Below are positions 3,887 to 38,538 of a stretch of 64,000 nucleotides of DNA, piece after piece; within the stretch, counting starts at the first letter, position 1, and each line of letters opens with the position of its first letter. The position numbers and the translations under genes are program-made. This stretch comes from Marmoricola sp. Lineage in GTDB: Bacteria > Actinomycetota > Actinomycetes > Propionibacteriales > Nocardioidaceae. The stretch spans positions 1,601 through 65,600 of the forward strand of contig JAKFBZ010000027.1 in the NCBI GenBank assembly GCA_036676945.1, in the 5' to 3' direction. Below the pieces are notes generated by a model that saw only the letters and a program-made list of their open reading frames with translations, was not told the origin of the DNA and ran no database searches.

Positions 3887-4420
3887 TCAGTGCCGCGGGT
3901 CCCGCCCCGCGTAGGCGAGGAGCTTGTCCTGAGCCGAGGCGTCGGCCGGCACGGTGATCTCGGGAGCGAAGACGCCCTCGCGCTGGTCGTCGGTGAACGC
4001 GCCGTAGATCATCTCGTACGCCGCCTCCGGCAGGCCCTCGGGCATGGTGGCGTCCTGCCCGGTCGCCCGGGCCAGGTCCCAGCCGTGCAGCAGCTGGTCG
4101 CTGAACGCGATCCCGAGCGCGGGACCGGTCTTCTCGATCACGCCGTCCTCGCCGAAGACCGCCAGCATCTCCTCCCGAGCGCTCCGGAAATCCGCCGCCG
4201 GGTCGTCGCCGAGGAGCACGGGCGGCTCCTGGCCCGGCGGGGACACGTCCTGCCCTCGGGCCGCGCCCACGAAGTACTGCTGCGTGTCGAGCATGTGGTT
4301 CATCAAGGTGCGCACGTCCCACTTCTGGCAGGGCGTCGACGCGTCGAGCTGGTTCGCAGCGCCGGTCGCCTTGGTGAGCGTCCAGTCGCTGGCACGTCCG
4401 TACAGATCGAGCAGGTCCAT
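3887..4420 (-). CDS. TIGR03086-family (MDMPI-like) metal-binding protein
   Basis: TPCQKWDVRTLMNH and DQLLHGWDLARATGQ motifs. Confidence 0.8.
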   Translation of the reverse strand: MDLLDLYGRASDWTLTKATGAANQLDASTPCQKWDVRTLMNHMLDTQQYFVGAARGQDVSPPGQEPPVLLGDDPAADFRSAREEMLAVFGEDGVIEKTGPALGIAFSDQLLHGWDLARATGQDATMPEGLPEAAYEMIYGAFTDDQREGVFAPEITVPADASAQDKLLAYAGRDPRH

Positions 4421-4468
4421 GACATACCTCCACCCACTCGCTACCCGCTCTGCGGATCGACAAACACA

Positions 4469-4504
4469 AGAACGCCCCCTGACCCGAAGGCCAAGGGGCG
4501 TTCT
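4469..4504 (-). terminator. Intrinsic terminator of ilvBNC
   Basis: AGAACGCCCC / GGGGCGTTCT 10-bp stem just after the ilvC stop, followed by TGTGTTT on the minus strand. Confidence 0.75.
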
Positions 4505-4513
4505 GCGATGAAC

Positions 4514-6143
<1,630 letters not shown>

Positions 6144-6144
<1 letters not shown>

Positions 6145-7901: not shown

Positions 7902-7949
7902 CGGATTCCTTCGGTGGTCAGTCTGTGCGTGGGTTTCGTTCAGTCCATC

Positions 7950-7983
7950 AAAAAACCCCCCGGCCAAGGATGGCAGCGAGGGG
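7950..7983 (-). terminator. Attenuator terminator hairpin upstream of ilvB
   Basis: CCCCUCG-CU-GCCA(UCCU)UGGC-CGGGGGG followed by six U. Confidence 0.85.
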
Positions 7984-8011
7984 TCGACGCGGGAGCGTTG
8001 AGGTGGTGGCC

Positions 8012-8053
8012 TCAGCTCACGCGTCGCGTGCGTACAAGAATCTCAAAACGCAT
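8012..8053 (-). CDS. ilvB leader peptide [13 protein letters not shown]
   Basis: 13-codon ORF with consecutive Ile-Leu-Val codons just upstream of alternative hairpins and a terminator. Confidence 0.85.
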
Positions 8054-8143
8054 GGACACATAGTGCCCCTCGTGCCACCAGGCACTCAACTCACTATGCC
8101 AGCCATCCCAGCATCCGGGACAGCCATCTTGGATTCTGGCATT

Positions 8144-8848
8144 TCAGGCGTGAGCAGCGAGCGGGGCGATCTGGTTCCCGGTGTCGTCGAAGTTCGCCGG
8201 ATCCAGCCAGGCCTCCAGTGCCGCGCTGACCGCCGGCCACTCCGCGTCGGTGATCGAGAGCCAGTCGGTGTCCCGGTTGCGGCCCTTGTAGACGAGCGCG
8301 TTGCGGAAGGTGCCCTCGTAGGTGAATCCGAGCCGCTCGGCAGCGCGGCGCGACGGGGCATTGAGCGAGTCGCACTTCCACTCGTAGCGGCGGTAGCCGA
8401 GGTCGTCGAAGGCGTGGCGGAGCATCAGGTACATCGCCTCGGTCGCGGCGGTCGTCCGCTGCAGTTCGGCGGCGTACACGATCCCGCCGACCTCGACGGA
8501 CCCGTTCGCCGCATCCAGGCGGAGGTAGGAGGCCACCCCGACCGGCCGGCCGTCGGGCAGGCAGATCACGTGCGGGACCGCGCCCGGGTCGTCGTTCAGG
8601 TCCCGCAGCCAACCGAACAGGCCCGGCTTGTCGGTGAACGGACCGACCGGGATGTAGGTCCAGACGCTCTCCGGCGAGCGGGTCACCAGGGAATCGAAGA
8701 GCTGGTCGAGGTGGTGGGCGGCCACCGGCTCGATCCGGCAGGTGCGCCCGGTCAGCGTCACCGGCGCGACCTGGGGGCGCGCGGACCAGGCCACCGGATC
8801 CCCGATCGGCTGGCCGAACTCGTTGCTGCGCTGCTCCGGGCCGGTCAC
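8144..8848 (-). CDS. GNAT (RimJ/RimL-like) N-acetyltransferase
   Basis: LGYRRYEWKCDSLNAPSRRAAERLGFTYEGTFR motif. Start set at GTG 8848 (GTGA overlap with the upstream gene). Confidence 0.88.
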   Translation of the reverse strand: MTGPEQRSNEFGQPIGDPVAWSARPQVAPVTLTGRTCRIEPVAAHHLDQLFDSLVTRSPESVWTYIPVGPFTDKPGLFGWLRDLNDDPGAVPHVICLPDGRPVGVASYLRLDAANGSVEVGGIVYAAELQRTTAATEAMYLMLRHAFDDLGYRRYEWKCDSLNAPSRRAAERLGFTYEGTFRNALVYKGRNRDTDWLSITDAEWPAVSAALEAWLDPANFDDTGNQIAPLAAHA

Positions 8849-9822
8849 TGGAAGCTCACGAACCGGACCTGCGGGCGGATGCCGAGGACCTGGCCGGGGC
8901 GCATCCGGGGCACGTCCTCGTCGTAGAAGAGCTTGAAGCCGAGCGCGAACTGCGCCGGCCGGACCACGTGCCGGAAGGTGGCGAGCTTGGCGCGCGGCGG
9001 ACCGAAGCCGTCGACGTGCTGCACCTCGGCGAGGTGCGCTCGCGGCTTGACCTGCGCGATGTCCCGGATCATGTCGGTCCTGAACTGGTGGAGCAGGAAG
9101 ACCTTCTCGGGCAGACTCTCCCGGGCCGTGAGCGCGTCGAGCCAGCGGGAGACCCGGTTGACCTCGACGGCGTCGACCGAGCCGATCCGCTGCCCGGGGA
9201 CACCGCCCCGGCTCATCCGCCACTCGGGGTCGAGGGCCAGTCCGACCCACGGGTCCTTCAGGGCCCATTCCCAGCGTTCGGCGACCGGGAGGAACCCGGC
9301 ACTCCCCGGCTGGAGGTCGAGGAGCAGCAGGACACCGTGCCGGTGCGCGGCACGGATGTAGCGCTCGACCAGGCTCCGGTCGATGTCCGCGCTGTAGGTC
9401 CCGCTCCGGCCCGGGCTCGCGTGCGCGACGGTGACGATCAGCTCGAAGACGGGCTGGACCTGGCGACCACCCCGGGCGAACGGACGGGCCGCCGCCTGCA
9501 GCCGGGGCATGATCCGTTCCGGGTAGTCCTCACCGAGGACGCCGAGCGAGCTGGTGCCGGCGGTGCCGTAGTACGCGACCAGGAACTTGTTGCCCGCGAA
9601 GACGCGGCTCCCGCCGCCAGGCAGGACCGGCGGCCCGGAAGCCGGCCGAGGCACCTCCGGCGCGGGATCGGCCGACGGCGCCGGGAGCACGCCCGGCATC
9701 CGGGGCGCCTGCGGCGTCGGCTGCTCCCGGTCCTCGGGGCGGGTGTCGTCATCGCGGTCGTCCTGGCCGATCGCACCGATCACGAGGAGGAAGGCGACCA
9801 GGAGCAGGCCGACCAGGTACAT
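8845..9822 (-). CDS. Conserved exported protein of unknown function (possible glycoside-hydrolase-like barrel)
   Basis: N-terminal hydrophobic helix, Pro-rich linker, then VAYYG, FELI.TVA, LDLQPG, LALDPEW, HVDGFG, FKLFYDED motifs. Start uncertain (9822 or 9858). Confidence 0.6.
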   Translation of the reverse strand: MYLVGLLLVAFLLVIGAIGQDDRDDDTRPEDREQPTPQAPRMPGVLPAPSADPAPEVPRPASGPPVLPGGGSRVFAGNKFLVAYYGTAGTSSLGVLGEDYPERIMPRLQAAARPFARGGRQVQPVFELIVTVAHASPGRSGTYSADIDRSLVERYIRAAHRHGVLLLLDLQPGSAGFLPVAERWEWALKDPWVGLALDPEWRMSRGGVPGQRIGSVDAVEVNRVSRWLDALTARESLPEKVFLLHQFRTDMIRDIAQVKPRAHLAEVQHVDGFGPPRAKLATFRHVVRPAQFALGFKLFYDEDVPRMRPGQVLGIRPQVRFVSFQ

Positions 9823-14330: not shown

Positions 14331-16019
14331 TCAGCCGCAGACCGCGCCGTGGGCCGCGGACTGGACGACCTTCGCGTACTTGCCGAGCACCCCGCGGGTG
14401 TACTTCGGCGGGTTCGGCTCCCAGCCGACCTTGCGGGCCTCCAGGTCGTCCATCGTCACCTCGAGCGTCTTGTTGGCGACGTCGAGGGTGATCGGGTCGC
14501 CGTCACGCACGAAGGCGATCGGACCGCCGTCGACCGCCTCGGGAGCGATGTGCCCGACGCAGAGGCCGGTGGTGCCGCCGGAGAACCGGCCGTCGGTCAC
14601 GAGCAGGACGTCCTTGCCCAGGCCGGCGCCCTTGATCGCGCCGGTGATGGCGAGCATCTCGCGCATCCCCGGTCCGCCCTTGGGGCCTTCGTAGCGGATG
14701 ACGACCACGTCGTTCGCCACGATCCTGCCCTCGGCCAGCGCGTCGAGCGCCGCGCGCTCGCCGTCGAAGACCCGGGCGGTGCCGGTGAAGGTCGTGTCGT
14801 CGAACCCGGCGCTCTTGACGACCGCGCCCTCCGGGGCGAGCGAGCCCTTGAGGATCGTGATGCCGCCGGTGGCGTGGATCGGGCGGCCCAGCGCGCGGAT
14901 GACATCGTCGTCGACGGCCTTCGGGTTCAGCGCCTCGAGGTTCTCGGCCATCGTCCGGCCGGTCACGGTGAGGGTGTCGCCGTGCATCAGCCCGGCGTCG
15001 AGAAGCGCCTTCATCACGACCGGGATGCCGCCGATCTTGTCGACGTCGTTCATCACGTACTTGCCGAACGGCTTCAGGTCGCCGAGGTGCGGGACCTTGT
15101 CGCCGATCGTGTTGAAGTCGTCGATGGTCAGGTCGACCTCGGCCTCGCGGGCGATCGCGAGCAGGTGCAGCACCGCGTTGGTCGAGCCGCCGAGCGCCAT
15201 CACCACGGCGATCGCGTTCTCGAACGCCTCCCGGGTCATGATCTGGCGTGCCGTGATGCCCTGCTTGAGCATCGCGACCACCGCCTCGCCCGAGCGGTGC
15301 GCGAACCCGTCGCGACGACGGTCGACGGCCGGCGGGGCGGCGCTGCCCGGCAGGGACATGCCGAGCGCCTCGGCCACCGAGGCCATCGTGTTCGCGGTGT
15401 ACATGCCGCCGCAGGCGCCCTCGCCGGGGCAGATCGCGCGTTCGATCTTGTCGACCTCCTCGCGGGTGATCTTGCCGGCCAGGCACGCGCCGACCGCCTC
15501 GAAGGCATCGATGATCGTCACGTCGTGGCCGTCCACGCTGCCCGGCATCGTGGAGCCGGCGTACAGGAAGACGGAGGCGAGGTCGAGCCGGGCGGCAGCC
15601 ATCAGCATGCCGGGGAGGGACTTGTCGCAGCCGGCGAGCAGCACGGAGCCGTCCAGCCGCTCGGCCATCATCACGGTCTCGACCGAGTCGGCGATGACCT
15701 CGCGGCTGACCAGCGAGTAGTGCATCCCCTCGTGGCCCATCGAGATGCCGTCGGAGACCGAGATGGTGCCGAACTCGAGCGGGTACCCGCCGGCGGCGTG
15801 CACGCCGTTCTTCACGGCCTTCGCCAGCCGGTCCAGCGACAGGTTGCACGGGGTGATCTCGTTCCAGCTGGACGCGACCCCGATCTGCGGCTTGACCCAG
15901 TCGTCGTCACCCATGCCTACGGCCCGCAGCATCCCTCGCGCGGCCGCCTTCTCGAGGCCGTCGGTGACGTCGCGGGAGCGGGGCTTCATGTCGGGCGCCG
16001 GAGGAGGGGTCTGCGTCAT
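14331..16019 (-). CDS. ilvD: Dihydroxy-acid dehydratase
   Basis: [59 protein letters not shown]. Start reset to MTQT (16019). Confidence 0.97.
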
Positions 16020-16081
16020 GCGGCCCATTCTCCCCGACGACCCGCCGGTCCCGCGCGGGTGTTCCGTTCTGCGGCCCCGGC

Positions 16082-17170
16082 TCAGACCGCGGCTGCTCGG
16101 ACGACCATCACGTCCGGCAGGTTCTCGACGACCTCGGTCCACGACTCGCCCGCGTCCGCGGAGGCCCAGACCGCGCCGTTGCGAGCCCCGAAGTAGAGCC
16201 CCGCCGGCTCATGCGAGTCGGTGCACATCGCGTCGCGCATCACCGCGACGTAGAAGTCGTCGGGCAGACCCTTGTCCATCGCCGTCCAGGTCTCTCCCGC
16301 GTCCCGCGAGCGCCACACCGCCGCGTGGGCGTCCGGCGGGTAGCGGCGATCGCCCCCGTTGATCGGGAAGACGTAGACCGTGTCCGGCTCGTGGGGGTGC
16401 ACCACGACGGAGAAGCCGAACTCGGCCGGCAGCCCGTCGGCGATCGACTGCCAGGAGGCGGCGTGGTCGTCGGAGCGGTAGACCCCGCCGTGGTTCTGCA
16501 GGAACAGCCGTTCGGGACGGTCCGGGTGCCGGGCGACCTTGTGCACGCACTGCCCGAACTCCGGGTACTGCTCGCCCTCGGGCAGGAACTCCGCCTTCAC
16601 CCCCACATTGCGCGGCTCCCAGGACGCCCCTCCGTCGGAGGTCTGGTAGCAGCCGCCGGTCGAGATCGCGACGGTGATCGAGTCGGGGTCGGTCGGGTGC
16701 GGCAGGATCGTGTGGAACGCCTGCCCGCCGAAGCCCGCGCCCCACTCCGTCCGGTGCGGGTGCTCCCACAGGCCGCGCTCGAGTGCGAACGTGTCGCCGC
16801 CGTCGACCGAGCGGAACACCGCTCCCGGCTCGGTGCCGGCGAAGACCACGCCGGGCTCGGTGCCGGGCGCCAGTTGCCAGATGCGCTCCACGGAGGCGTC
16901 GAGGCCCTCGGGGAAATGCGCGCCCGAGGTCGCCTGCCAGGTCTCGCCGAAGTCGTCGGAGACCTGGATCTGCGGCCCGGTCCACGGCGAGGACGCCCCG
17001 GCGAAGAGCCGCGGTCGCTCCCCGCGGGTGTCGATCATGCAGGAGTAGACCTCGGTCATGTCGAAATGCGGCCCGGTCCAGCTCCACTCCGCCCGGCCCT
17101 CGTCGGACCGGCCGACCCACAAGCCTTTGCGGGTGCCCACCATCAGGATCGTCCCAGCTGCAGCGCTCAT
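16082..17170 (-). CDS. BNR/Asp-box beta-propeller protein (sialidase/glycosyl-hydrolase-like)
   Basis: Repeated S.DGG.TW / SDD.GETW Asp-boxes; CVHKV..HP motif. Confidence 0.8.
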
Positions 17171-17347
17171 CGATCGAGCATGCCTCCGGGAGCCCGCCGA
17201 TCTCAAGGGACTTAACTGACTTGATTGTCTACTGTTTTACTGTACTTTAAACGAGAGCACTTGTTCACACGGATGTCACAGACACGTGACCCCGGCGTTC
17301 CAACGAGTGCCTAGGTTCGGTGCACCAGCAAAGGGAGGAGAGCCCGG

Positions 17348-17563
17348 ATGAACACCCTGTACGCCGCATCGCCGCTGGGCCTCGCAGCACGTTGGTCGAC
17401 CCGCAGCCAGGAACAGGCCCGTCGCAACGCGATGGCCGCCTGCACCGTCCTGGCCGCCCGCCGCCTGGAACGTCTCGAGGTCGAGGAGTACGTCGCTGGC
17501 CACCTGGCCCGCCACGCCGACGCAGCACAACCGAACAGGACCGCCGACCGCCACGTGAGCTGA
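17348..17563 (+). CDS. Small hypothetical protein (71 aa)
   Basis: Strong GGGAGGAG RBS; helical, charged sequence (SQEQARRNAM…RRLERLEVEEY). Confidence 0.65.
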   Translation: MNTLYAASPLGLAARWSTRSQEQARRNAMAACTVLAARRLERLEVEEYVAGHLARHADAAQPNRTADRHVS

Positions 17564-17640
17564 ACCGACCCGAGCGCGCCGACGGGTGATGTCAGCCACT
17601 TCCGCCCCCTTACGCAGTGGGGCTGGGGCACACTCGATCC

Positions 17641-18609
17641 ATGTCAGCGCCCTTGTCCGAAGCCGGACCGATCCTCCGGCTGGTCCCTGATTCCGCCGAA
17701 TCCCCCGCCGCGACCGCTGCGGGCGACGGCTCGCACGAGTACGCGCTGCGCTTCTACCCGGTCATCGCGCACGACGGCACCGAGCTGCAGGCGTGGACCA
17801 ACGACGTCGACGGCCCGACCGTGCTGCTCTGCAACGGGCTCGGCACCAATCCGTACGCGTGGCCTGCCCTGCTGGACCCGGACTGCGGCGTACGCGTGAT
17901 CTCGTGGAACCACCGGGGCACCGGTGGGTCGGCTCGCCCGACCGACCCGACCCACGTCGGCATCGACGCGTTCGTCGAGGACGCGATCGCGGTCCTGGAC
18001 GACGCCGGCATCGAATCGGCGCCGGTGATGGGCTGGTCGATGGGCGTGAACACCGCGTTCGAACTCGCGACCCTGCACCCGGAGCGGGTGGACGCCCTGT
18101 TCGCCGTCGCCGGCGTGCCCGGTGGCACTTTCTCCTCGATGCTCGCGCCGCTGCACGTTCCCCGGTTCGCCCGGGCCGCGATCACGGTGAACGCCGCCCG
18201 GTTGATGCGGTTCGCCGGCGCTCCGCTGAGCGTCCTGGCCCGCAACCTGCCGGTCGGCCCGAAGGCGGTCGCCGTGCTGAGCCACAGCGGTTTCATGCTC
18301 CCCGTCGCAGATGTGGAGCTGACCGCCCGCACGATCCACGACATGCTGCAGACGCCGATCGACTGGTACATGGGCCTGGCGGTCGAGACCTCCAAGCACG
18401 TCCGGGTCTCGCTCAGCTCGATCGAGGTCCCGACCACCTTCGTCGCCGGCCACTGGGACGTGCTGGCATCCGCCGGAGACATGCGTTCGGCGGCTGCACG
18501 GATCGAGGGCGCCGAGTACGTCGAGTTCCGCGCCTCGCACTTCGTGGCGATGGAGAAGCCGGCTGAGGTCCACGAGCTGCTCCTCGACCTGCTGGACCGG
18601 ATCCCGTAA
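17641..18609 (+). CDS. Alpha/beta-fold hydrolase
   Basis: NGLG oxyanion region, GWSMG nucleophile elbow, C-terminal SHF histidine; leaderless CACACT-N6-ATG. Confidence 0.85.
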   Translation: MSAPLSEAGPILRLVPDSAESPAATAAGDGSHEYALRFYPVIAHDGTELQAWTNDVDGPTVLLCNGLGTNPYAWPALLDPDCGVRVISWNHRGTGGSARPTDPTHVGIDAFVEDAIAVLDDAGIESAPVMGWSMGVNTAFELATLHPERVDALFAVAGVPGGTFSSMLAPLHVPRFARAAITVNAARLMRFAGAPLSVLARNLPVGPKAVAVLSHSGFMLPVADVELTARTIHDMLQTPIDWYMGLAVETSKHVRVSLSSIEVPTTFVAGHWDVLASAGDMRSAAARIEGAEYVEFRASHFVAMEKPAEVHELLLDLLDRIP

Positions 18610-18633
18610 CAACGGATCAGTACCGTGGGGAGC

Positions 18634-19764
18634 ATGCGACGACTCCTCGCCACGAGCCTCGCCCTCGGCGCCGCCGTCCTGGTCGCCGGCTGCAACGGGG
18701 ACGACGACGCGTTCGGTCCCTCGTCCCAGGGCGGTGACCCGACCACAGCAGTCCCCCAGCCGACCGAGCCGGCGACCACCCTGTCACCGAACCCCGCGGG
18801 GCCTCCCGCGGTGATCGGGACGGTGGCGAGCGGTCTCGAGGTCCCCTGGGGCATCGCCTTCCTGCCGGACGGCTCCGCCCTGGTCACCGAGCGGGACAGC
18901 GGACGCGTCCTGCTGGTCCGACCGGGCGACGCTGCCCGCGAGGTGGGCCGCATCGACGAGACCAGGCCGCAGGGCGAGTCCGGGCTGCTCGGCGTCGCGG
19001 TCTCCCCGACGTACGCGACCGACCACCGGGTCTTCTTCTACACCTCGACCGACTCCGACAACCGGGTGCTGCGGGCGACCTTCGAGGACGGCCGGATCGG
19101 ACGGACGAAAGCGATCCTGACCGGCATCCCGCACGGATTCATCCATGACGGCGGACGGCTCGCCTTCGGCCCGGACGGCTACCTCTACGTCTCCACCGGC
19201 GAGACCGGGCAACCCGAGCTCGCCCAGCGAAGCGGCACACCGGCCGGCAAGGTCCTGCGGATCACCGTCGACGGCGCACCCGCGCCCGGCAACCCGGACC
19301 CGGACTCGCCGGTCTGGACACTCGGTCATCGCAACGTGCAGGGTCTCGCGTTCGACGACGCCGGACGGCTGTGGGCCTCGGAGTTCGGTCAGAACGCCTG
19401 GGACGAGCTCAATCTGATCCAGCGAGGGGTCAACTACGGCTGGCCGCAGGTCGAGGGGCGCGGTGACGTCCCGGGGTTCCGCAACCCGCAGGTCGTCTGG
19501 CGCACCGACGTGGCCTCCCCTTCCGGGCTGGCGTTCGCCGAAGGGAAGCTGTGGCTGGCGTCGCTGCGTGGCGAGCGCCTGTGGCGGATCGACGTGAGCG
19601 GGGCGCGGGCGACCAACCCGCGCGACTTCTTCGTCGGCCGCTACGGCCGGATGCGCACCGTCGCGCTGGCGCCCGACGGGAACCTGTGGGTGACCACGTC
19701 GAACCGGGACGGCCGCGGGGATCCCCAGGACGAGGACGACCGGATCCTGCTCGTCCGGCCCTGA
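18634..19764 (+). CDS. PQQ-dependent glucose/sorbosone dehydrogenase-family lipoprotein
   Basis: Lipobox LVAGC; PWG.AFLPDG, HDGGRLAFGPDG, GHRNVQGLAF, DELNLI, NYGWP motifs. Confidence 0.88.
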   Translation: MRRLLATSLALGAAVLVAGCNGDDDAFGPSSQGGDPTTAVPQPTEPATTLSPNPAGPPAVIGTVASGLEVPWGIAFLPDGSALVTERDSGRVLLVRPGDAAREVGRIDETRPQGESGLLGVAVSPTYATDHRVFFYTSTDSDNRVLRATFEDGRIGRTKAILTGIPHGFIHDGGRLAFGPDGYLYVSTGETGQPELAQRSGTPAGKVLRITVDGAPAPGNPDPDSPVWTLGHRNVQGLAFDDAGRLWASEFGQNAWDELNLIQRGVNYGWPQVEGRGDVPGFRNPQVVWRTDVASPSGLAFAEGKLWLASLRGERLWRIDVSGARATNPRDFFVGRYGRMRTVALAPDGNLWVTTSNRDGRGDPQDEDDRILLVRP

Positions 19765-19789
19765 CCCGAGTCAGGACCGGACGAGCCGA

Positions 19790-21460
19790 TCAGCGGACGA
19801 GCTTGATGCTGGTGGTGCCGCGGCGGATCGCCGGGAAGGCACCCAAAGCCGTCACCGAGGCCTTCCCGGGCGCGCCGGTGACGATGAAGGTGCCGGTGAA
19901 GACACCGTTCGGCCCGGCCACACCGGCGCGCTTGCGCACACCGCGCAGGTTCACGATGACCGGTTCGGCCGGTGCGAGTCCGGAGACGGTGACCGTGACC
20001 CGCCTGCCGATCGTCACGACCGCCTTGGACGCGACGACCCGGAAGGTCCTGGCGCCGAGGACGACCGCCTGGATCGAGGCGCTGTTGTTGCCGCGGTCCT
20101 TCACGGTGACGATCCGCTTCGCGGTGGCGGCCGGGAAGGTCACCCGGGTGGTCACGGTCCCGGCAGCCCCGGCAGACAGGCTCCGGTTCGAGCCGACCGC
20201 GTTGAGGCAGACCTTGTCGCCGGGGACGACCCCGGAAACGGTGTACGTCGCCGTACTGCCGCCCTTGATGAAGCCGGTCGGTCCGGCGATGGCGATCGCC
20301 GGCGTGCCCGAGGGCGCGTAGGCGAGGACCGGGAGTGCCTGGGCGGCAGCGATCCGCCACTGCTGCGCGCCGGAGCCGATGCCGGTGGCGCGGCCCGTGG
20401 CCAGCGCCTGGTCGTTGTAGGCGATCGCACCGGTCTCGGTGCTCAGCGCGTTGGCGCAGGCAGTGAGCTCGTCGGCCTGGTGGGCACGGACCCAGATCGC
20501 GGCCTTCGTCGCCGCAGCTGTCTCCCCGCGCAGACCGAGAGCCCCGCCGATCAGTCCGGTGCTGTTCGCGTTCGGGACTGCGGTGCTGGTGCCGCCGATG
20601 AAGGAGCCGTCCGGGAGCTGGCGGGCGATCAGCCAGTCCTCGGCCTTCTCCAACGCGGTCTCGACGGTGGCGTTGCCCGCGGCCTGGGGCTGGAGGAGCC
20701 GGACCACCTGGGCGGTCACGTCCGGGTCAGCCGGGCTGAACTGGGGGTTCGCACCGTCGCAGGTCTGGTCCTCCGCGGTCTTGTCGAAGTTGAAGTCGAG
20801 CCGGAAGTAGCCGGCCGCGCACTGCTGCTTCAGCAGGAACGTCAGTGCCGGATCCGCCTCGTCCGCCCCTGCGGCGAAGAGTCCCGCCACTCCGAGTGCC
20901 TGGCCCACGACGTTGGTGTACTCGCTGGCCGGGTCGTCGGCGCCGTCCTTCGTCGAGAGGCCGACCAGGCGGCCCTCGATCGGGGCGGTCGTGGCGACGA
21001 AGCTCTTCAGCCGCGCGACGAGGTCGATGCCGTCCATCGTCGTCGTCGGCGTGGACAACGCCTGCCCGAGGACCAGCGCCTTCGCCGTCCCTCCGGCGCT
21101 CTGCCCCTCGTAGTGCTCGGTGATGCCGTCAGCCGGGAAGTCGCTGTCGTAGTCGTAGGCGAACTCGGTGTACGCCTTCACCTGTGAAGCGATGGCGGCG
21201 CCGACGGCGTCGACGTCGGCCATGTGGCCGCCGGCGAGCTTCAGCGAGAGCGCGGCGTCGATCGAGGTGCCGTACAGCGGGCCGAAGTCGCCGGGCAGAA
21301 GCCCGTTCACGAGCTCACCGGCGAGCCAGTCGGCCCCGATGCTCAGCGGACGCGGGTCGGTGCCGGCGGCCTGCGCGGGAGCCGGGATCAGGGTGACGCC
21401 GGTGACGGCGAGTACGGAGGACGCGACGAGCGCCCCCGTACGTCGGAGGAGGGGTGACAT
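19790..21460 (-). CDS. Secreted prenyltransferase/squalene-cyclase-repeat (alpha/alpha barrel) protein with C-terminal Ig-like domains; candidate cobalamin-binding protein
   Basis: Signal peptide …PAQA; QW-like repeats (FLLKQQCAAGYF, WLIARQLPDGSF, NANSTGL); lies directly downstream of a B12 riboswitch. Confidence 0.7.
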   Translation of the reverse strand: MSPLLRRTGALVASSVLAVTGVTLIPAPAQAAGTDPRPLSIGADWLAGELVNGLLPGDFGPLYGTSIDAALSLKLAGGHMADVDAVGAAIASQVKAYTEFAYDYDSDFPADGITEHYEGQSAGGTAKALVLGQALSTPTTTMDGIDLVARLKSFVATTAPIEGRLVGLSTKDGADDPASEYTNVVGQALGVAGLFAAGADEADPALTFLLKQQCAAGYFRLDFNFDKTAEDQTCDGANPQFSPADPDVTAQVVRLLQPQAAGNATVETALEKAEDWLIARQLPDGSFIGGTSTAVPNANSTGLIGGALGLRGETAAATKAAIWVRAHQADELTACANALSTETGAIAYNDQALATGRATGIGSGAQQWRIAAAQALPVLAYAPSGTPAIAIAGPTGFIKGGSTATYTVSGVVPGDKVCLNAVGSNRSLSAGAAGTVTTRVTFPAATAKRIVTVKDRGNNSASIQAVVLGARTFRVVASKAVVTIGRRVTVTVSGLAPAEPVIVNLRGVRKRAGVAGPNGVFTGTFIVTGAPGKASVTALGAFPAIRRGTTSIKLVR

Positions 21461-21529
21461 GGTTTCCTTCCCGCTGCACGCGCGGGAGGCTGTCGCCGCC
21501 CGCTGCTTTCCACGACAGCGAATGTTGCG

Positions 21530-21660
21530 AGGACGTCGTCCGGTGGGTGCTCCGACTCGTCGCCCCTGCGTGCTGGGCGACCTACGGTTGCGGGTCAGTG
21601 CCGGGATTCGACCGGCTTTCCCCGACCAACGACGTGATGGTGTTGGGCTGCTCCCCCGAG
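21530..21660 (-). ncRNA. Cobalamin (AdoCbl) riboswitch
   Basis: Minus strand GGGGAAAGCCGGUCGAAUCCCGGCACUGACCCGCAACCGUA core, GUCGCCC…GGGCGAC stem, and GAGUCGGAGCACCC; TAGGGT -10 at 21676-21671. Confidence 0.88.
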
Positions 21661-21714
21661 GGAACGATTGACCCTAACACCGCGCTGGGGAGCGGTTTGC
21701 GGGCACGTCACCAC

Positions 21715-21771
21715 GTCTCGACACGCTCGGTCGCGACCTCGTCCCTCGGTCGCGCTCGCTGCTCGACGACC
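21715..21771. repeat. REP-like element (GTCTCGAC…CTCGACGACC type) downstream of gatB
   Basis: Head GTCTCGACACGCTCG, central GCGACC/GGTCGC hairpin, tail CTCGCTGCTCGACGACC; same architecture as the 11929-12037 units. Confidence 0.55.
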
Positions 21772-21800
21772 GACGAGCTGATCCGCTAGCGCGTCTCAGC

Positions 21801-23291
21801 TCAGGCGAGCTTCTCGATGATCAGTTCGCGGACGCGCCCGGCGTCCGCCTGGCCCTTCATGTCCTTCATCACCGCACCGATGAGTGCGCCGGCGGCGGCC
21901 GCCTTGCCGTCCCTGATCTTCTCCGCGACGTCCGGGTTGGCCGCGATCGCACGATCCACCGCCTCCCCCAGAGCGCCTTCGTCGGAGACGATGGCGAGCC
22001 CACGGGCCGCGACCACGGCGTCCGGCTCACCCTCGCCGGCGAGGACGCCCTCGAAGACCTGCCGGGCCAGTTTGTCGTTGAGCGATCCGCTGTCGACCAG
22101 GGCCTGGATCGCCGCGACCTGGGCCGGCGTGATCGCCAGTTCGGTCAGCTCGACGCCTTCCTCGTTGGCGCGACGGGTGAGCTCGGAGACCCACCATTTG
22201 CGCGCGGCCTGCGGGGACGATCCGGCGGCGACCGTCTGCTCGATCAGCCCGACCGCGTCAGCGGCGACCACGTCGCGCATCTCCAGGTCGGTGAAGCCCC
22301 AGTCGCCCTGCAACCGCGCGCGCTTCTCCCGCAGAGGCTCGGGCAGGCCCGCCTTCAGCTCGGCGACCCACTCGCGGGTGGGCGCCACCGGGACCAGGTC
22401 GGGCTCCGGGAAGTAGCGGTAGTCGTCGGCGTCCGACTTCTCCCGGCCGGACGTGGTGACCCCGGTGTCCTCGTGCCAGTGCCGGGTCTCCTGGAGGATC
22501 GACTCCCCCGCCTTCAGCAGGCTCGCCTGCCGGGAGACCTCGTAGCGGGCCGCCCGCTCGACCGAGCGCAGCGAGTTCACGTTCTTGGTCTCGGTGCGGG
22601 TGCCGAGCACGTCGGCGCCCTTGGGAGCCAGGGACAGGTTCACGTCGCAGCGCATCGAGCCCTGCTCCATCCGGACGTCCGAGACGTCCAGGCCGAGCAG
22701 CAGGTCGCGCAGGGTGGCGACGTACGCCTTGGCGACCGCCGGGGCCTTCGCGCCGACGCCGGTGATCGGGCGGGTCACGATCTCGATCAGCGGGATCCCG
22801 GCGCGGTTGTAGTCGACCAGCGAGTAGTCGGCGCCCTGGATCCGTCCGGTGGAGCCGCCGACGTGCAACGACTTGCCGGTGTCCTCCTCCATGTGAGCGC
22901 GCTCGATCTCCACCCGGTAGGTCTCACCGTCGACCTCGACGTCGAGGTAGCCGTCGAAGGCGATCGGCTCGTCGTACTGCGAGGTCTGGAAGTTCTTCGG
23001 CATGTCCGGGTAGAAGTAGTTCTTCCGGGCGAACCGGCACCACTCGGCGATCTCGCAGTTCAGCGCCAGGCCGATCCGGATCGCCGACTCCACCGCCTTG
23101 CCGTTGACCACCGGCATCGAGCCGGGCAGTCCGAGGCAGGTCGGACAGGTCTGCGTGTTCGGCTCGCCGCCGAACTCGACCGAGCAGCCGCAGAACATCT
23201 TGGTCGCGGTGTTCAGCTCGACGTGGACCTCCAGGCCCATCGCCGGATCGAACGCGGCGATCGCGTCGTCGTAGGAGAGCAGGTCGGTCAT
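21801..23291 (-). CDS. gatB: Asp/Glu-tRNA amidotransferase subunit B
   Basis: [52 protein letters not shown]. True start ATG 23291. Confidence 0.97.
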
Positions 23292-24829
23292 GCGGACGCT
23301 CCAGGAGTGTTGACAGCCTCGACCAACGAGGGCGCCTCGGCGAGCAAAGGTCGGCCCCATTCGCTCTCGAGCAGGGATTCCAGCGCGGCGCCGACCCGGT
23401 AGAGCCGGTCGTCGGCCAGTGCCGGGGCCAGGATCTGGAAGCCGACCGGGAGACCGTCCTCCGGCGCGAGGCCGGCCGGGATCGAGATGCCCGGGATGCC
23501 GGCCAGGTTCGCCGGGATGGTGGCGACGTCGTTGAGGTACATCGCCAGCGGGTCGTCGAGCTTCTCGCCGATCCTGAACGCCGTGGTGGGCGCGGTCGGC
23601 GACACAAGCACGTCGGCCTGCGCGAACGCGGCCTCGAAGTCGCGGCTGATCAGCGTCCGCACCTTCTGGGCCTGCCCGTAGTAGGCGTCGTAGTAGCCGC
23701 TCGAGAGCGCGTAGGTGCCCAGGATGATCCGGCGCTTCACCTCGTCGCCGAAGCCTGCGTCGCGGGTCGCGCGCATGACGTCCTCCGCGCTCGGGTCGTC
23801 GTTGCCCTCGGGCAGTGTCCGCAGGCCGTACCGCATCGCGTCGAAGCGGGCCAGGTTCGAGGAGGCCTCGCTCGGCATGATCAGGTAGTACGCCGCGAGC
23901 GCGTGCCGGAAGTTCGGGCAGGAGACCTCGACGACCTCGGCACCGGCCTTGACCAGGAGCGCGATCGACTCGTCGAACCGCTGCTGGACGCCGGCCTGGT
24001 AGCCCTCGCCGCCGAGCTCGGAGATGACCCCGATCCGGACCCCTGTCAGGTCGCCGGCCGCACCGAGGCGGGCCGCGTCTGCGAGCGCCGGGAGTGGCTG
24101 GTCGATGCTGGTGGAGTCCATCGGGTCGTGTCCGCCGATGACTTCGTGGAGCAGCGCTGAGTCCAGCACGGTCCGGGTCACCGGCCCGACCTGGTCGAGC
24201 GAGTTCGCCATCGCGACCAGCCCGTAGCGGGAGATGCCGCCGTACGTCGGCTTGAGGCCGACCGTGCCGGTCACGGCGCCGGGCTGGCGGATCGAGCCGC
24301 CGGTGTCGGTGCCGACGGCGAGCGGGGCCTCGAACGCCGCCACAGCGGCGGCGGAGCCACCGCCGGAGCCGCCCGGGATCCGGTCCAGGTCCCACGGGTT
24401 GCGGGTCGGACCGTACGCCGAGTGCTCGGTTGAGGAGCCCATCGCGAACTCGTCCATGTTGGTCTTGCCGAGGATCGGGAGACCGGCGGCCTTCAGCTTC
24501 GTGACGACGGTGGCGTCGTACGGCGGGATCCAGCCCTCGAGGATCTTCGACCCGCACGTGGTCGGCAGGCCCTCGGTGGCCAGCACGTCCTTGACCGCGA
24601 TCGGGACGCCGTCCAGCGGGCTCGCCGGGGTGCCCGCGGCGCGACGGGCGTCGGAGGCGGCCGCCTGAGCGAGCGCGCCTTCGGCGTCGACGTGCAGGAA
24701 CGCGTGCACTGCGCCGTCGACCGCGGCGATCCGGTCCAGGCAGGCCCGGGTCAGTTCCACACTGGTGGTCTCGCCGGCCTCGAGCATGGCGGCGAGGTCA
24801 GCCGCGCTCTTCTTGATCAGATCAGTCAC
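23288..24829 (-). CDS. gatA: Asp/Glu-tRNA amidotransferase subunit A
   Basis: Amidase signature [34 protein letters not shown]; EVKRRIILG. Confidence 0.97.
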
Positions 24830-25125
24830 TGCTCGTCTCCCAGGATCCGCGGGACCGAGAAGCGCTGCTGCTCGGAGGCCGGGGCGCCGGAGAGCGCCTG
24901 CTCGGCGGTCAGGCTCGGCCGGACGACGTCCTCGCGGAAGACGTTGGTCAGCGGGATCGCGTGCGAGGTCGGCGGGATGTCCGCGGCGGCGACCTCGGCG
25001 ATCGAGGCGATGCTCTCCAGGATCACGGAGAGCTGCGGGGCGAGGTGGTCGAGCTCTGCGTCATCCAGCTCGATCCGGGCGAGATCGGCCAGATGGCGCA
25101 CCTCGTCACGGGTGATTTCAGGCAT
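24826..25125 (-). CDS. gatC: Asp/Glu-tRNA amidotransferase subunit C
   Basis: ITRDEV.HLA.LARI, NVFRED, F.VPRIL; first gene of gatCAB. Confidence 0.96.
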
Positions 25126-25167
25126 GGGGGCAATCCTAGTGCCGGTCAGGCCCTGCCTTTCTCACCG

Positions 25168-25209
25168 GGTTTCGCGGCGGTCGCTGCGCAACCGCACCTC
25201 AACCAGCGA
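25168..25209 (+). repeat. Single REP-like unit (same family as 11997-12037)
   Basis: GGTTTCGCGGC-GGTCGCTGCGCAACC-GCACCTCAACCAGCG has the same 11-nt head and a 14/15 identical tail. Confidence 0.75.
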
Positions 25210-25215
25210 GGTGCG

Positions 25216-26268
25216 TCAGCCCCGGACGATCCCGTCGTCGATCATCTGCTGGAAGTGGTCGGTCACCGACTCCGCCCCCGCGCGGAAGGTGATCCCGAGC
25301 TCCTCGACGGTGCGGCTGTTGTCGAAGCGCAGCGGGTAGCCGACGTTGAGCTCGATGAACTTGCGGGTCATCCCGGCGATCGGCGCCGCCAGCTTGATGA
25401 CCGGCTTCGGTGCCTGGGTCAGCGGGAAGGACGGCCGGTAACCGAAGCGGGCGCGCAGCGCCTTGCCGATGTCGAGCATGCTCATCGTCTCGGCGTTGGT
25501 GATGTAGCGCCCGTGCGCCTGCGGGGTGAAGCCGGCCGCGATGTGCGCCCGGGCCACGTCGCGGACGTCGACGACGCCCATCTCCAGCGCAGGAGCGCCG
25601 GCGGCCAACGAGTAGTCGGTGAAGCTCCCCATCGTCCGGAAGGTGCCGGACTTGCTGGCGGTCGTCAGCGACGGCCCCAGGACCAGACCGGGATGGATGG
25701 TGACCAGGTCCCAGCGGTCCTGCGCTCCGGCGATGTCCCAGGCCTCGCGCTCGGCGAGCGTCTTGGAGTACGGGTAGGGCTGGTGATCGAGGGTGCTGGT
25801 GGTGTTCCAGTCGTCCTCGGTGAACTGGTCCCTGCCGCGCATGTCGATGTTGTCGCCACAGATCGCGACCACGCTGCTGGTCAGCACGACGCGCTTGACC
25901 GACGCGGTCTCGTTCACGCTGGTCAGAACGTTCCGCGTGCCGTCGAGAGCGGGGTCGACCAGCTGCTTCTGCGGGTCGCGCACCTTGCCGAGCAGGAACG
26001 GCGACGCGGTGTGGATGACGAGCTCGCAGCCGGCCATCGCCTCGGTGTAACTGCCCGGCTCGAGCAGCTCGGCGCGGTGCAGCGTGAGTCGCCCGGGGTG
26101 GGCCTCGGCAAGCGTGTGCAGGTGCTCGAGACCTCTGGCCTTCTGAGGGTCGCGCACGGTGGCGCGGACGGTCTTCCCGTCTTCGAGCAGGTACCGCACG
26201 ATCCAGCTCGCGACATAGCCGCTGCCACCGGTGACCAGGACCGGCGCGGTGGGGTCGATGTTCGTCAT
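25216..26268 (-). CDS. NAD-dependent epimerase/dehydratase (DFR/aldehyde-reductase-like extended SDR)
   Basis: VTGGSGYVASW, VIHTASP, VVLTSS, YPYSK (YxxxK). Confidence 0.88.
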   Translation of the reverse strand: MTNIDPTAPVLVTGGSGYVASWIVRYLLEDGKTVRATVRDPQKARGLEHLHTLAEAHPGRLTLHRAELLEPGSYTEAMAGCELVIHTASPFLLGKVRDPQKQLVDPALDGTRNVLTSVNETASVKRVVLTSSVVAICGDNIDMRGRDQFTEDDWNTTSTLDHQPYPYSKTLAEREAWDIAGAQDRWDLVTIHPGLVLGPSLTTASKSGTFRTMGSFTDYSLAAGAPALEMGVVDVRDVARAHIAAGFTPQAHGRYITNAETMSMLDIGKALRARFGYRPSFPLTQAPKPVIKLAAPIAGMTRKFIELNVGYPLRFDNSRTVEELGITFRAGAESVTDHFQQMIDDGIVRG

Positions 26269-26334
26269 GGGAGGACCCTAGAGCCGCGGATGCAGCCGTG
26301 CCGAGAGTCCCGAGGCGTGACTACGCTCACCTGC

Positions 26335-26814
26335 ATGGAGCCGACCTTGATCGCCGACGAACGCACCCAGCTCGAGGAGTTCCTGGACGTCAACCGCGCC
26401 GACCTGGTCGACACCCTGCGCGGCCTCACGGAGGAACAGGCCCGCAGGCGACTGGTCCCGTCGCTCACCACCCCGCTCGGCCTGCTCAAGCACGCCGCCT
26501 TCGCAGAGAGGGTCTGGTTCCACGTGGCGCTCGCCGGTCACACCCGGGCCGAGCTCGGGATGCCGGAGCAGATCGACCCGACCTTCGCCTTCACGGACGC
26601 GGACACGGTGGACTCGGTCATCGCCGAGTACGAGCAGGTCTGTGCCGAGGCCCGGGAGATCGCGGCCCGCTTCGCCCTGGACGACCTGGCCCGGCACAAC
26701 CGCCGCGGGCCGCTGACGCTGCGCTGGATCTACCTGCACATGATCGAGGAGCTCGCCCGGCACGCCGGCCACGCCGACATCCTGCGCGAGCAGATCCTCG
26801 CCGCCGACGCGTGA
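26335..26814 (+). CDS. DinB-family (DUF664) protein
   Basis: LLKHAAFAERVWF and RWIYLHMIEELARHAGHADILRE motifs. Confidence 0.88.
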   Translation: MEPTLIADERTQLEEFLDVNRADLVDTLRGLTEEQARRRLVPSLTTPLGLLKHAAFAERVWFHVALAGHTRAELGMPEQIDPTFAFTDADTVDSVIAEYEQVCAEAREIAARFALDDLARHNRRGPLTLRWIYLHMIEELARHAGHADILREQILAADA

Positions 26815-26939
26815 CGAAGGTCCCTACCCGCCTAACCACATAGGTCGCAAATCGTACCTAATCGTCGGAAATAGTAAGATCTTGTACTAAATAGGCTGAT
26901 TTTCCCCCATGCTGGTGGTTCACGGACTGGGGAGGGTCT

Positions 26940-28947
26940 ATGAGTTTCACCGTCGGCACCACGATGCGCGCCAGCACCGCCGGCTGGGCGGACCTGCTCG
27001 GCCCGCCGAGTGCGGAGAAAGCCCGCTCACGGCGGCTGGCCCACCTGGGCGGTGTCGCCGCCCTCACGGCCCTGGCCGGGTACATCACCTGGCGGCTCGC
27101 CTTCACCCTGCCCGCGGGCGGCCCGAACGCCGTCGCGGCGCTCATCCTGGTCGGCTTCGAGGCGATCCCCCTCATCGGCATGGGCTTCCGGCTGGTGACC
27201 CTGTGGAACATCGACTCCGCAGCGCCGGCGCCGGTCACCGAGGCACCGGGCGGCATGCGGGTCGCTGTCCTCATTCCGACCTATGACGAGCCCGCGGAGG
27301 TCATCGCCCCGACCATCGCCGCCGCCTGCGCACTCGAGCCCGCCCACGAGACCTGGGTGCTCGACGACGGGGAGCGCCCCTGGGTGGAGGAGATCTGCCG
27401 GGTGTACGGCGCCCGCTACGTCTGCCGGCCGGTCCACGACCACGCGAAGGCGGGCAACCTCAACCACGCGCTCGAACTGATGGAGGCCGAGGCTGCCGCA
27501 GGCGCCCCGGCCGTCGATCTCGTCGGCGTGCTGGACTGCGACCACGTTCCGCTGCCCGGTTTCCTCACCTCGACGCTCGGTTGGTTCGAGGACCCCGAGA
27601 TCGCCCTGGTGCAGGGGTCGCAGAGCTTCTACAACGCCGGCGCCTTCGACGACGACGGCGTCAACGGCGAACAGGGGCTGTTCTTCAACGTCCTGATGGC
27701 GGCGCGCAACCGGCCCGACGCCGGCCCCTTCTGGTGCGGTTCGACGGCCGTGCTGCGGACCCGGGCGCTCCGCGAGATCGGCGGCGTCGCGACCGACACC
27801 ATCGTCGAGGACATGCACACGACACTCGGCCTGCTCCGGACCGGGTGGCGCACGGCGTACCACCACCAGACCCTGGCCGTCGGCCTTGCCCCGTCCACCG
27901 CCGAGCAGTACCTCCTGCAACGGCGCCGCTGGGGCCTGGGAGCGATGCAGGTGCTGACCCGGGAGAAGCTCTGGGCGGCGAAGCGGTGGATGTCGTGGCG
28001 CAACTACTACGAGTACCTGACCGGGACGTTGTGGTGGCTCGAGGGCGCCGCCACCGTCCTCGTCCTGGCCGTGCCGGTCGTGCTCCTGGTCACCGGCGCA
28101 CAGACCTCCACCGCGCCGCCGCTGACCTTCACCGCGATCTTCGCCACGACGTTCGCCGTCCGGCTGTGGGGCGCCAAGCGCTTCTACCGCCATCAGCTCA
28201 GCTGGTCCAATGCGCTCGCGCTGCGGATCCTGAGGATCCCGGTCGGCCTGTCGTGCCTGTGGTGGCTGCTGACCCGCCGGACCCTAGAGTTCCAGGTCAC
28301 TCCGAAGGAAGGCACCGCGGAACGGACCCGGAGCAGGGTGCCGCGGGTCCTCGGCGTCCTGCTGGTCACTCTGGCGGCGATCGTCGCCTACAGCGCTGCC
28401 GGCCTGGCCGGAGTCGTTCCCTGGCGTGCGTCGCCCTCGGCCACGGTGGCCTCAGGGATCTGGTTGCTGATCGCCACGACCACGGTCGCCCTCGGGATGC
28501 GCCGGATCCGCGCTGCCGAGTTCGCCTCGTCGCGCCGCAACGCACACCGGTTCGCCGTCCAGGCCGTCGTCGCCGTCGAAGGCGTGGACGCAGAGCTGGT
28601 CGACATCTCGGTCGGCGGCCTTCGCGTCCGCCTCCCGGAGGACGCTGTGCCCGGCGGAGGCCTCGTCCATGTCGAACTGCCGGGAGCCGAACCGGTGAAG
28701 CTCGCGCTGGTGCGTTCCGGCACGGATGCCCGGATCTCCGACCGCCTGGTCTCGCTCCGGGTCGTCCAGGGCGACTGGGCAGCGATGCGGACCCTGTCGC
28801 AGTGGTTGTTCCACACGCCGGCCGGCGCGGTGACGAACCTGCCGTACGGCGTCCCGGCGGCTGCCTCCACGCAGCCCGCACCGAGTCTGTCGGTCCGGCA
28901 GGGCCGAGCCGCCTCCGCTCGCGTGCGGACCCGGGTAGCGGCCCTCC

Positions 28948-28955
<8 letters not shown>
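26940..28955 (+). CDS. BcsA/cellulose-synthase-like GT2 with C-terminal PilZ domain
   Basis: TYDE, LDDG, HAKAGNLN, LDCDH, FWCGS, EDMHT, QRRRW catalytic motifs; PilZ RNAHR…DISVGG. Confidence 0.88.
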
Positions 28956-33422
<4,467 letters not shown>

Positions 33423-38506: not shown

Positions 38507-38538
38507 GGGTGCTATTCCTTTTCTCTGGGTCTGCCGGG

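Follow-up and report, generated by a model that had tools for sequence, protein, structure and literature searches.

Locus organization

We analyzed a 64-kb stretch of DNA from Marmoricola sp. (hereafter the window; all coordinates are positions within it), and focus on a gene for a secreted protein with a helical barrel (the barrel gene and the barrel protein) and on the cobalamin riboswitch in its leader. Riboswitch and gene lie entirely on the minus strand. The barrel gene is the sole long open reading frame (ORF) of coding-type composition in the interval that separates gatB from a gene for a GSDH-family dehydrogenase. The gatB stop lies near 21801, on the same side as the riboswitch, and the 340-nt spacer upstream of the barrel gene carries the regulatory RNA. 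The genes in question are as follows:

19790-21460, minus strand: coding sequence of the secreted barrel protein, 556 aa (ATG at 21460-21458, stop at 19792-19790)
18625-19764, convergent: GSDH-family dehydrogenase, the next gene (PF07995, domain match)

The initial annotation, made from the sequence alone, reported that no transporter gene precedes the next convergent gene, and this holds: the GSDH gene follows directly, with no transporter gene between the two. The sole ECF-like (energy-coupling factor) match in the 64 kb is an ABC ATPase with 29% identity at 1168-1827. The locus is also represented in soil, where metagenome contigs encode a protein identical to the window's barrel protein, and where the five best metagenome runs contain 86-98% of sampled words of the sequence, with lower shares in other runs.

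A compact cobalamin riboswitch precedes the gene

The leader of the barrel gene is a genuine cobalamin riboswitch. In a permissive scan of positions 21380-21860 (481 nt), the full RF00174 model matches 21524-21645 over model positions 1-189 with 26.0 bits and an E-value of 9.6e-5, which becomes approximately 0.013 when rescaled to 64 kb. This score is under the RF00174 gathering score of 31.5, which is why a whole-window Rfam scan at the gathering threshold returned no match. The low score reflects the compactness of the RNA: compared with the model, the aptamer lacks approximately 21 nt of the P2/P3 region and approximately 47 nt of the P6 extension. It shares with RF00174 the core GGGAA-GCCGGU...CCGGC-CUGACCCGCAACCGUAG, a B12-box-like 3' strand, and the P1, P5, and P6 helices with covariation. 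Its elements are:

21524-21645, minus strand: compact cobalamin riboswitch aptamer (RF00174, full model)
21635-21628 with 21541-21533, minus strand: aptamer helix P1
21616-21612 with 21604-21600, minus strand: aptamer helix P5
21587-21575 with 21565-21552, minus strand: aptamer helix P6, a short hairpin
21557-21542, minus strand: B12-box-like stretch of the aptamer, AGUCGGAGCACCCACC

To place this RNA among its relatives, we retrieved 80 loci with a gene for a relative of the barrel protein, taking a single locus from each species, and sought the aptamer core motif in them by regular expression. The motif is found upstream of the barrel gene in 75 loci and precedes a second, tandem paralogue in 4 more, i.e. 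a riboswitch core adjoins a gene of the family in 79 of 80. From an alignment of 44 leaders, RNAalifold predicts the helices P1, P5, and P6 together with a short P2-like helix; in this alignment 95.8% of cells are paired and 14 pairs show compensatory changes; slid controls reach 31-54% paired. Compensatory cells number 115, against 35 in shuffled alignments, and none of 500 shuffles is as high. Several orthologous leaders (L026, L063, L005, L072, L009, L006, L048, L053, and L084) score 32.4-38.9 bits with RF00174, over the Rfam cut-off. These include L005 and L063, which are among the window's nearest relatives, and the leader from Plantactinospora, outside Nocardioidaceae. The Rfam threshold misses an entire clade of cobalamin riboswitches that are compact and actinobacterial.

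Expression platform, promoter, and transcript

The region between the aptamer and the start codon follows a conserved layout. Specifically, the leaders contain, in order, a post-aptamer hairpin, a variable hairpin, an anti-Shine-Dalgarno (anti-SD) strand CCUCCCGCUG, a few nucleotides, the block GCAGCGGGAAGGAA (21476-21463 in the window), 5-9 nt, and the start codon. From this layout, the CAGCGGG element is seen to be duplicated: the first hairpin has one copy in its 3' strand, a second copy is fused to the SD, and the anti-SD strand is able to pair with either. The features of the window leader, including those upstream of the aptamer, are:

21671-21676, minus strand: -10-like hexamer TAGGGT, with TG at 21679-21678 (extended -10, TGn); putative promoter, read from the sequence
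21651-21664, minus strand: small 5'-leader hairpin (UUCCCUCGGGGGAG) just past the putative start, paired in the minimum-energy fold
21501-21520, minus strand: post-aptamer hairpin CGCUGU-CGUGGAAA-GCAGCG, in 44 of 44 aligned leaders, 97% paired
21482-21489, minus strand: anti-SD strand CCUCCCGC, complementing the SD copy and the upstream copy of (CA)GCGGG
21465-21474, minus strand: SD region GCGGGAAGGA, sequestered by the anti-SD strand (leader comparison)

In the window, where the aptamer ends 64 nt from the ATG, CCUCCCGC (21489-21482) pairs with GCGGGAAGG (21474-21466) and thereby overlaps the SD 5 nt before the ATG. Across 72 distinct leaders (the window and 71 loci), the SD-side block CAGCGGGAAGG is nearly invariant at 5-9 nt before the start codon, and most carry a CCUCCCGCUG-type anti-SD. 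Both strands vary together in L013, L048, and L073, which thus present compensatory anti-SD/SD variants. The post-aptamer hairpin has the consensus CGCUGU-CGWGGAAA-GCAGCG across leaders, lies directly after the aptamer, and is probably a P13-like switching helix. The platform emerged from the comparative alignment, single-sequence folding of the leader being uninformative (z -1.7 and -0.6), and no U-tract terminator follows it. A 5'-leader position before a B12-related gene and an SD-sequestering platform are common to the RF00174 class and the window, while the duplicated CAGCGGG element distinguishes this leader from usual RF00174 forms.

We propose that this arrangement acts as a ligand-dependent translational switch. 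The transcript would start at approximately 21662, and its 5' leader would fold as the compact cobalamin aptamer. With corrinoid bound, hairpin 21520-21501 would be closed and CCUCCCGC left free to pair with GCGGGAAGG, hiding the ribosome-binding site and turning translation off. Without B12, the upstream CAGCGGG copy would instead capture the anti-SD strand, and the barrel gene would be translated.

The hexamer TAGGGT agrees with the actinobacterial -10 consensus TANNNT, and many related leaders have a TANNNT hexamer comparably placed upstream of the aptamer, although the distance is shorter there than in the window, which has a small hairpin between hexamer and aptamer. A CCCC-N4-GGGG hairpin occupies the equivalent place in many relatives' leaders. 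A promoter scanner that detects only E. coli-type promoters found none. In a soil metatranscriptome (run X23), a 162-nt contig spans exactly 21662-21501 with 0 mismatches, i.e. the putative start, the aptamer, and the first hairpin. The leader is therefore present as RNA, and the contig, which begins 9 nt past the hexamer, is compatible with a start there. No contig in the same metatranscriptome search covers the coding region. The contig could represent a leader fragment that is stable or a unitig break at conserved k-mers shared among species; as its 3' end at the hairpin is possibly such an assembly break, we do not take it as a termination site.

The leader elements that the initial annotation had named from a single sequence are all borne out. 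These are the TAGGGT hexamer, now seen as an extended -10 at 21676-21671 with a contig start downstream of it; the cobalamin riboswitch core; and a CUCCCGC/GCGGGA hairpin abutting the SD, which corresponds to the sequester helix conserved across the 72 leaders. The Rfam comparison named there as a check came out in part: the family is matched in the permissive scan, and the gathering score is not reached.

The barrel family and its operon in relatives

The barrel protein belongs to a large actinobacterial family. We collected 112 homologues, the family has 157 confirmed matches in GTDB species genomes, and an exhaustive search returned 1,112 cluster representatives at E <= 1e-30. When a set of 5.8 billion proteins was searched with a barrel profile, the matches listed were all close relatives, and the exhaustive representative search gave no distant annotated links.

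Relatives typically carry more than the riboswitch and the barrel gene. In 70 of the 80 species loci, the barrel gene is separated from the GSDH gene by approximately 4.4 kb with four genes, and the resulting operon encodes, in order, the barrel, a small secreted SCO2322-family protein, a CbiQ-type T component, a fused double ABC ATPase, and an ECF S component. CbiQ and ABC_tran domains are matched for the T component and the ATPase, respectively, and the latter is also matched by ECF ATPase models. PF12822 (ECF S component) is the family of the S component, with which a PDB profile search gave no match. The SCO2322-type partner, assigned to PF28005 ("SCO2322") in precomputed annotation, is approximately 290 aa long and has a conserved domain of 110 residues, a linker rich in Pro, Ala, and Ser, and a membrane anchor at its C-terminus, as read from the ORFs of L009. 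When partners were compared with DUF4430, 1 of 25 members matched at E 0.016, and one UniRef name, that of P0360, reads DUF4430. A search of the literature on SCO2320-2325, or on a riboswitch together with a prenyltransferase and ECF genes, found nothing relevant.

The set of riboswitch, barrel, SCO2322-type protein, and ECF genes also occurs in Plantactinospora, outside Nocardioidaceae, and is thus widespread in Actinomycetes. In Plantactinospora sp. KBS50 (L084, 5622-14119), the pair of barrel and SCO2322 genes is doubled, the order being riboswitch, barrel (359 aa), SCO2322 (162 aa), barrel (483 aa), SCO2322 (307 aa), CbiQ, double ATPase, and S component. L031 has two tandem barrel paralogues, each behind its own cobalamin riboswitch (4406-4478 and approximately 5810), and in L046, L048, L053, and L061 (approximately 6001-8950) only the second of two tandem barrels is preceded by a riboswitch. 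Riboswitch and barrel together thus behave as a cassette that duplicates.

The proteins themselves also vary in form. Variants among relatives such as P0101, P0103, P0230, P0268, P0206, and P0302 include tandem double barrels of 770-782 aa with a C-terminal membrane anchor, a lipoprotein form (P0094), barrel-only proteins of approximately 360-380 aa ending in Cys, and proteins of more than 1300 aa with DUF4214 repeats. A substantial share of the orthologous matches (36 of 80) ends before query residue 500. In L075 and L078, barrel and partner seemed to be fused, which was rejected as an effect of over-extended ORFs in GC-rich DNA: stop codons intervene, and when these loci are read through, the ORF stops just past the barrel.

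Protein architecture and fold

The window protein consists of a signal peptide, a barrel, and two immunoglobulin (Ig)-like domains:

21368-21460, minus strand: signal peptide, residues 1-31, with an AQA-A site (read from the translation; cleavage site placed by eye)
20306-21364, minus strand: (alpha/alpha)6 barrel (toroid), residues 33-385 (model, Foldseek, family profile)
20051-20305, minus strand: first Ig-like beta-sandwich, residues ~386-470 (model secondary structure; Foldseek Ig/MG-type matches)
19793-20050, minus strand: second Ig-like beta-sandwich, residues ~471-556 (model, Foldseek), with no anchor at the protein end

The full-length AlphaFold model has a mean predicted local distance difference test (pLDDT) score of 93 and shows the helical barrel at approximately 33-385 followed by two beta-sandwich domains at 386-556, with pLDDT <50 for residues 1-24. 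The N-terminal signal is of the Sec type, with no Cys in the first 40 residues and hence no lipobox. A Tat signal was dismissed because the RR pair is not conserved, relatives having PR, SR, or GR. Read directly, the translation contains no C-terminal transmembrane segment or LPXTG motif. The translation and the model thus agree with the initial annotation, which had described a Sec signal, a cyclase-like barrel, and two Ig-like domains, with no lipobox, transmembrane anchor, or LPXTG.

Full-length Foldseek results are dominated by Ig-like domains and complement MG domains, and because these swamped the search, the barrel was modelled alone (pLDDT 95.9). Its top matches are small class II terpene cyclases (8pak; E 5.6e-6, TM-score 0.57), MstE, and drimenyl diphosphate synthase, and GH88/GH105 hydrolases match with TM-scores of 0.5-0.58. 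Transcobalamin appears at rank 14 (7qbg_C; E 5.6e-4, TM-score 0.40) and rank 20 (2bb5_A; E 1.4e-3), i.e. with TM-scores of approximately 0.4, where terpene cyclases reach 0.57-0.60. With the family profile, the match to squalene-hopene cyclase 1gsz is at 7.4e-20. Given these structural and profile matches, we assign the barrel to the toroid fold class of cyclases, prenyltransferases, and transcobalamin, nearer to the cyclases.

Domain searches agree with this placement. Pfam and NCBIfam models match the window protein only below threshold (TED domain, 0.017; squalene cyclase, 0.0025), and among 68 family members the weak Pfam matches are to SQHop_cyclase_C (38), Prenyltrans (34), TED_complement (31), and Cobalamin_bind (1). 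Cobalamin_bind (PF01122) is not matched in the window protein, and its single match among the 68 has E 0.014; in the tandem-barrel relative P0230, the second barrel reaches E 4e-4 and 19.8 bits, below the 25-bit cut-off. The Pfam search found no DUF4430 in the window protein, and neither that protein nor the 68 members have a sequence match to glycosidase families. The TED matches were also considered as a sign of an alpha-2-macroglobulin/complement thioester domain, which was rejected: the match is weak and the CxEQ motif is absent, with QQC(A/S)xG in its place.

Invariant barrel residues include QQC214, C234, D247, Q281, N297, and T301. D247 aligns with the central Asp of the cyclase DxDD motif, and the catalytic motif is incomplete: where squalene-hopene cyclase has D374-V-D-D-T-A, the aligned residues are D-x-D-[A/V]-T-A in the family and DPDVTA in the window, so that the third Asp is Ala or Val family-wide. 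These data bear on whether the protein is a secreted (alpha/alpha)6 enzyme, i.e. a class II terpene cyclase or prenyl-binding protein, or one resembling glycoside hydrolases or lyases, with only an indirect link to B12. The cyclase-led Foldseek ranking, the profile match to squalene-hopene cyclase, and the position of D247 speak for such an enzyme, but the third Asp of the motif is replaced across the family, the protein is exported and thus away from isoprenoid diphosphate substrates, an importer is co-transcribed in 70 of 80 genomes, and no glycosidase family is matched by sequence. We regard an enzyme as the least probable of the explanations weighed here.

The solo form and selection on the barrel gene

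The window differs from most of the family in having the riboswitch and the barrel gene with no operon. This solo arrangement is shared by the window, L001, L002, L004, L005, L063, and N. marmorisolisilvae, in which the barrel gene gives way directly to the convergent GSDH gene or to genes that are likewise unrelated. The synteny of gatCAB, riboswitch, barrel gene, and convergent GSDH gene is conserved, and as upstream gatCAB is retained throughout, the arrangement is explained by a deletion that removed the four genes downstream. By GatB, the genomes closest to the window (86-91% identity) are also the solo ones, which fits a single loss.

Several features argue against decay of the solo gene. 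Its ORF is intact in the window and in at least 6 divergent genomes at 41-83% identity, and it retains all family-invariant residues, the riboswitch, and the SD switch. The ratio of nonsynonymous to synonymous substitution rates (dN/dS) is 0.19 for L001 vs L004, indicating purifying selection; every other solo pair is saturated. We conclude that the partner and transporter genes were lost from the window's locus while the riboswitch and the barrel gene were kept under selection.

It is, accordingly, very unlikely that the locus is a remnant of operon decay in which riboswitch and barrel persist without useful function. Two observations would fit a remnant: the window and its nearest relatives lack all four downstream genes, and the barrel protein changes rapidly, being 48% identical between the window and L002, against 91% for GatB (21801-23300 in the window) and 76% for GSDH. 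However, the reading frame, invariant residues, and regulatory elements are intact, dN/dS is low in the one unsaturated pair, the model is very confident, and leader RNA is detected in soil. Fast divergence is, moreover, also found in extracellular proteins of intact operons: in operon-type loci the SCO2322-type proteins are 35-60% identical, against 60-93% for the S component. More broadly, the extracellular proteins of the system (barrel and SCO2322) diverge far faster than proteins encoded by neighbouring genes.

Comparison with known systems

Transcobalamin, intrinsic factor, and haptocorrin resemble the barrel protein in being secreted and having an (alpha/alpha)6 barrel, and in the extracellular capture of B12 for uptake, which is here proposed. 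In transcobalamin, B12 is held between an alpha and a beta domain; the window protein has two Ig-like domains where the beta (SLBB/DUF4430) domain would be. The (alpha/alpha)6 barrel is, furthermore, common to many families other than transcobalamin.

Class II terpene cyclases (squalene-hopene cyclase, 8pak/8paj, and MstE) share QxxDG(S/G)F repeats with the barrel. They differ from the window protein in that it is exported, has D-x-D-[A/V] in place of DxDD, and is a single barrel rather than a beta-gamma didomain, and the genomic context of the family is an importer, not isoprenoid metabolism.

BtuG and BtuH of Bacteroides are surface lipoproteins that bind corrinoids with high affinity, are encoded in riboswitch-controlled loci, and work with the TonB-dependent BtuB. 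Their likeness to the barrel protein is a functional analogy: they are Gram-negative lipoproteins, the folds are unrelated, and there is no homology.

Two sets of bacterial proteins come closest to the family. The beta domain of transcobalamin is an SLBB beta-grasp domain, and bacterial secreted proteins contain both SLBB and an alpha/alpha toroid, often with Ig-like domains; such toroid and beta-like proteins sit in operons with CbiO- and CbiQ-like genes and have been predicted to be B12 scavengers (Burroughs et al. 2007; PMC1796856). In Lactobacillus sakei, lsa1836-1840 encode the ECF S, A-A', and T components together with two separate secreted proteins, one modelled as the beta half of transcobalamin and the other as its alpha half (bioRxiv 10.1101/864751). 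The window protein shares a secreted toroid with the scavengers predicted by Burroughs et al. and with lsa1839/1840, and with the former also the frequent Ig-like domains, and its relatives add a second secreted protein and ECF T, A-A, and S components, such that the Nocardioides-type operon has the same parts as lsa1836-1840. The family differs in being actinobacterial, in its control by a cobalamin riboswitch, and in its PF28005 partner. The window locus also differs in being without partner and transporter, while the family at large has the transporter in 70 of 80 loci.

Proposed function

Since the barrel is made with an SCO2322-family protein and an ECF importer in most relatives, we propose that it is a corrinoid-capture subunit, and the riboswitch points to corrinoids as the substrate of the operon. 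Our estimate that the barrel acts as an extracellular corrinoid-capture protein is approximately 60%, and it draws on the regulation of the gene and on the company it keeps in relatives, not on a specific likeness to transcobalamin. The barrel, exported by its Sec-type signal and unanchored, would be the counterpart of the transcobalamin alpha domain, and in operon-type relatives the membrane-tethered SCO2322 protein is a possible beta-like partner. In the solo lineage, the barrel would work on its own: under B12 scarcity it would bind extracellular corrinoid and hand it over to a transporter whose genes lie elsewhere. Both the binding and the hand-off are predictions from sequence and context. 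Retention of the barrel gene after loss of partner and transporter suggests that the protein may bind its ligand by itself.

Several observations weigh against this proposal. The nearest relatives of the barrel in sequence and fold are class II terpene cyclases, not transcobalamin, with 8pak and other small cyclases heading the Foldseek list. The aptamer of the window scores below the Rfam gathering cut-off. To enclose B12, transcobalamin depends on its beta domain, and the window contains no gene for a beta-like protein; in relatives, a PDB profile search with the SCO2322 partner was negative, and the partner is at most a candidate transcobalamin-beta (DUF4430/SLBB) protein. Within the 64 kb, no transporter was found that could receive the corrinoid.

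Two further points against it concern the identity of the ligand. Cobalt transporters are also under B12 riboswitch control, and the T component falls in the Pfam family named CbiQ. In addition, the architecturally equivalent L. sakei operon lsa1836-1840 has been linked experimentally to haem uptake, not to B12 (bioRxiv 10.1101/864751). As such, the barrel and its relatives' ECF system could capture cobalt, a cobalt chelate, or a haem-like tetrapyrrole, with the riboswitch merely tying expression to B12 status. We consider this rather improbable: the S component belongs to PF12822, which is of a general vitamin type and not a CbiM-type cobalt component, the large cavity of the toroid is better suited to a large ligand than to an ion, and haem uptake would offer no reason for repression by B12.

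The initial annotation had suggested a candidate transcobalamin-like scavenger that probably captures corrinoids despite its cyclase-like repeats, and this is supported in part. Capture in preference to catalysis is favored by the riboswitch linkage, the 70 ECF operons among 80 loci, and the incomplete DxDD, but cyclases remain nearest by sequence and fold. The likeness to transcobalamin stands at the level of the fold and goes little further, with a Foldseek rank behind the cyclases and one weak Cobalamin_bind match among 68 members.

A more specific version for the solo form is that the barrel is a free, unanchored, and B12-repressed "corrinophore" (compare haemophore), which lacks a partner and either delivers corrinoids to an unrelated transporter or withholds them from competitors, the family at the same time showing that actinobacterial ECF importers use extracytoplasmic binding proteins. 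The textbook view is that ECF transporters have no such proteins. We offer this version tentatively and think it somewhat doubtful.

In Gram-positive soil bacteria, the extracellular acquisition of B12 is poorly known, and the dedicated capture proteins demonstrated so far come mainly from gut Bacteroides and from animals. A family linked to a cobalamin riboswitch and, in most cases, to an ECF importer makes the 2007 prediction directly testable; what is at stake in it is the existence of bacterial transcobalamin-like scavengers and of extracellular helpers for ECF transporters. The solo lineage adds a natural experiment, as the barrel alone was kept under B12 control after loss of partner and transporter. 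The kind of system was already predicted. What is new is an actinobacterial, riboswitch-controlled family with an SCO2322-type partner, a stand-alone form that has shed both partner and transporter, and a conserved platform with a duplicated CAGCGGG element.

Other genes in the window

The ORF list of 15000-28000 is rich in long spurious ORFs on the wrong strand or in the wrong frame (e.g. 21454-21789 on the plus strand), as is expected at 70% G+C, and filtering the ORF list by third-position G+C left 44 likely genes. Positions 26940-31353 encode a family-2 glycosyltransferase (671 aa) and then a GGDEF-EAL protein (801 aa), which are ordinary and have no bearing on the riboswitch or the barrel. 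On the minus strand, 2 adjacent genes at 35105-38542 and 38539-42444 encode proteins of 1145 and 1301 aa that consist almost entirely of Big_3_5 bacterial Ig-like repeats, with 8 matched stretches in the former and 7 in the latter; both are probably surface or adhesin-like proteins.

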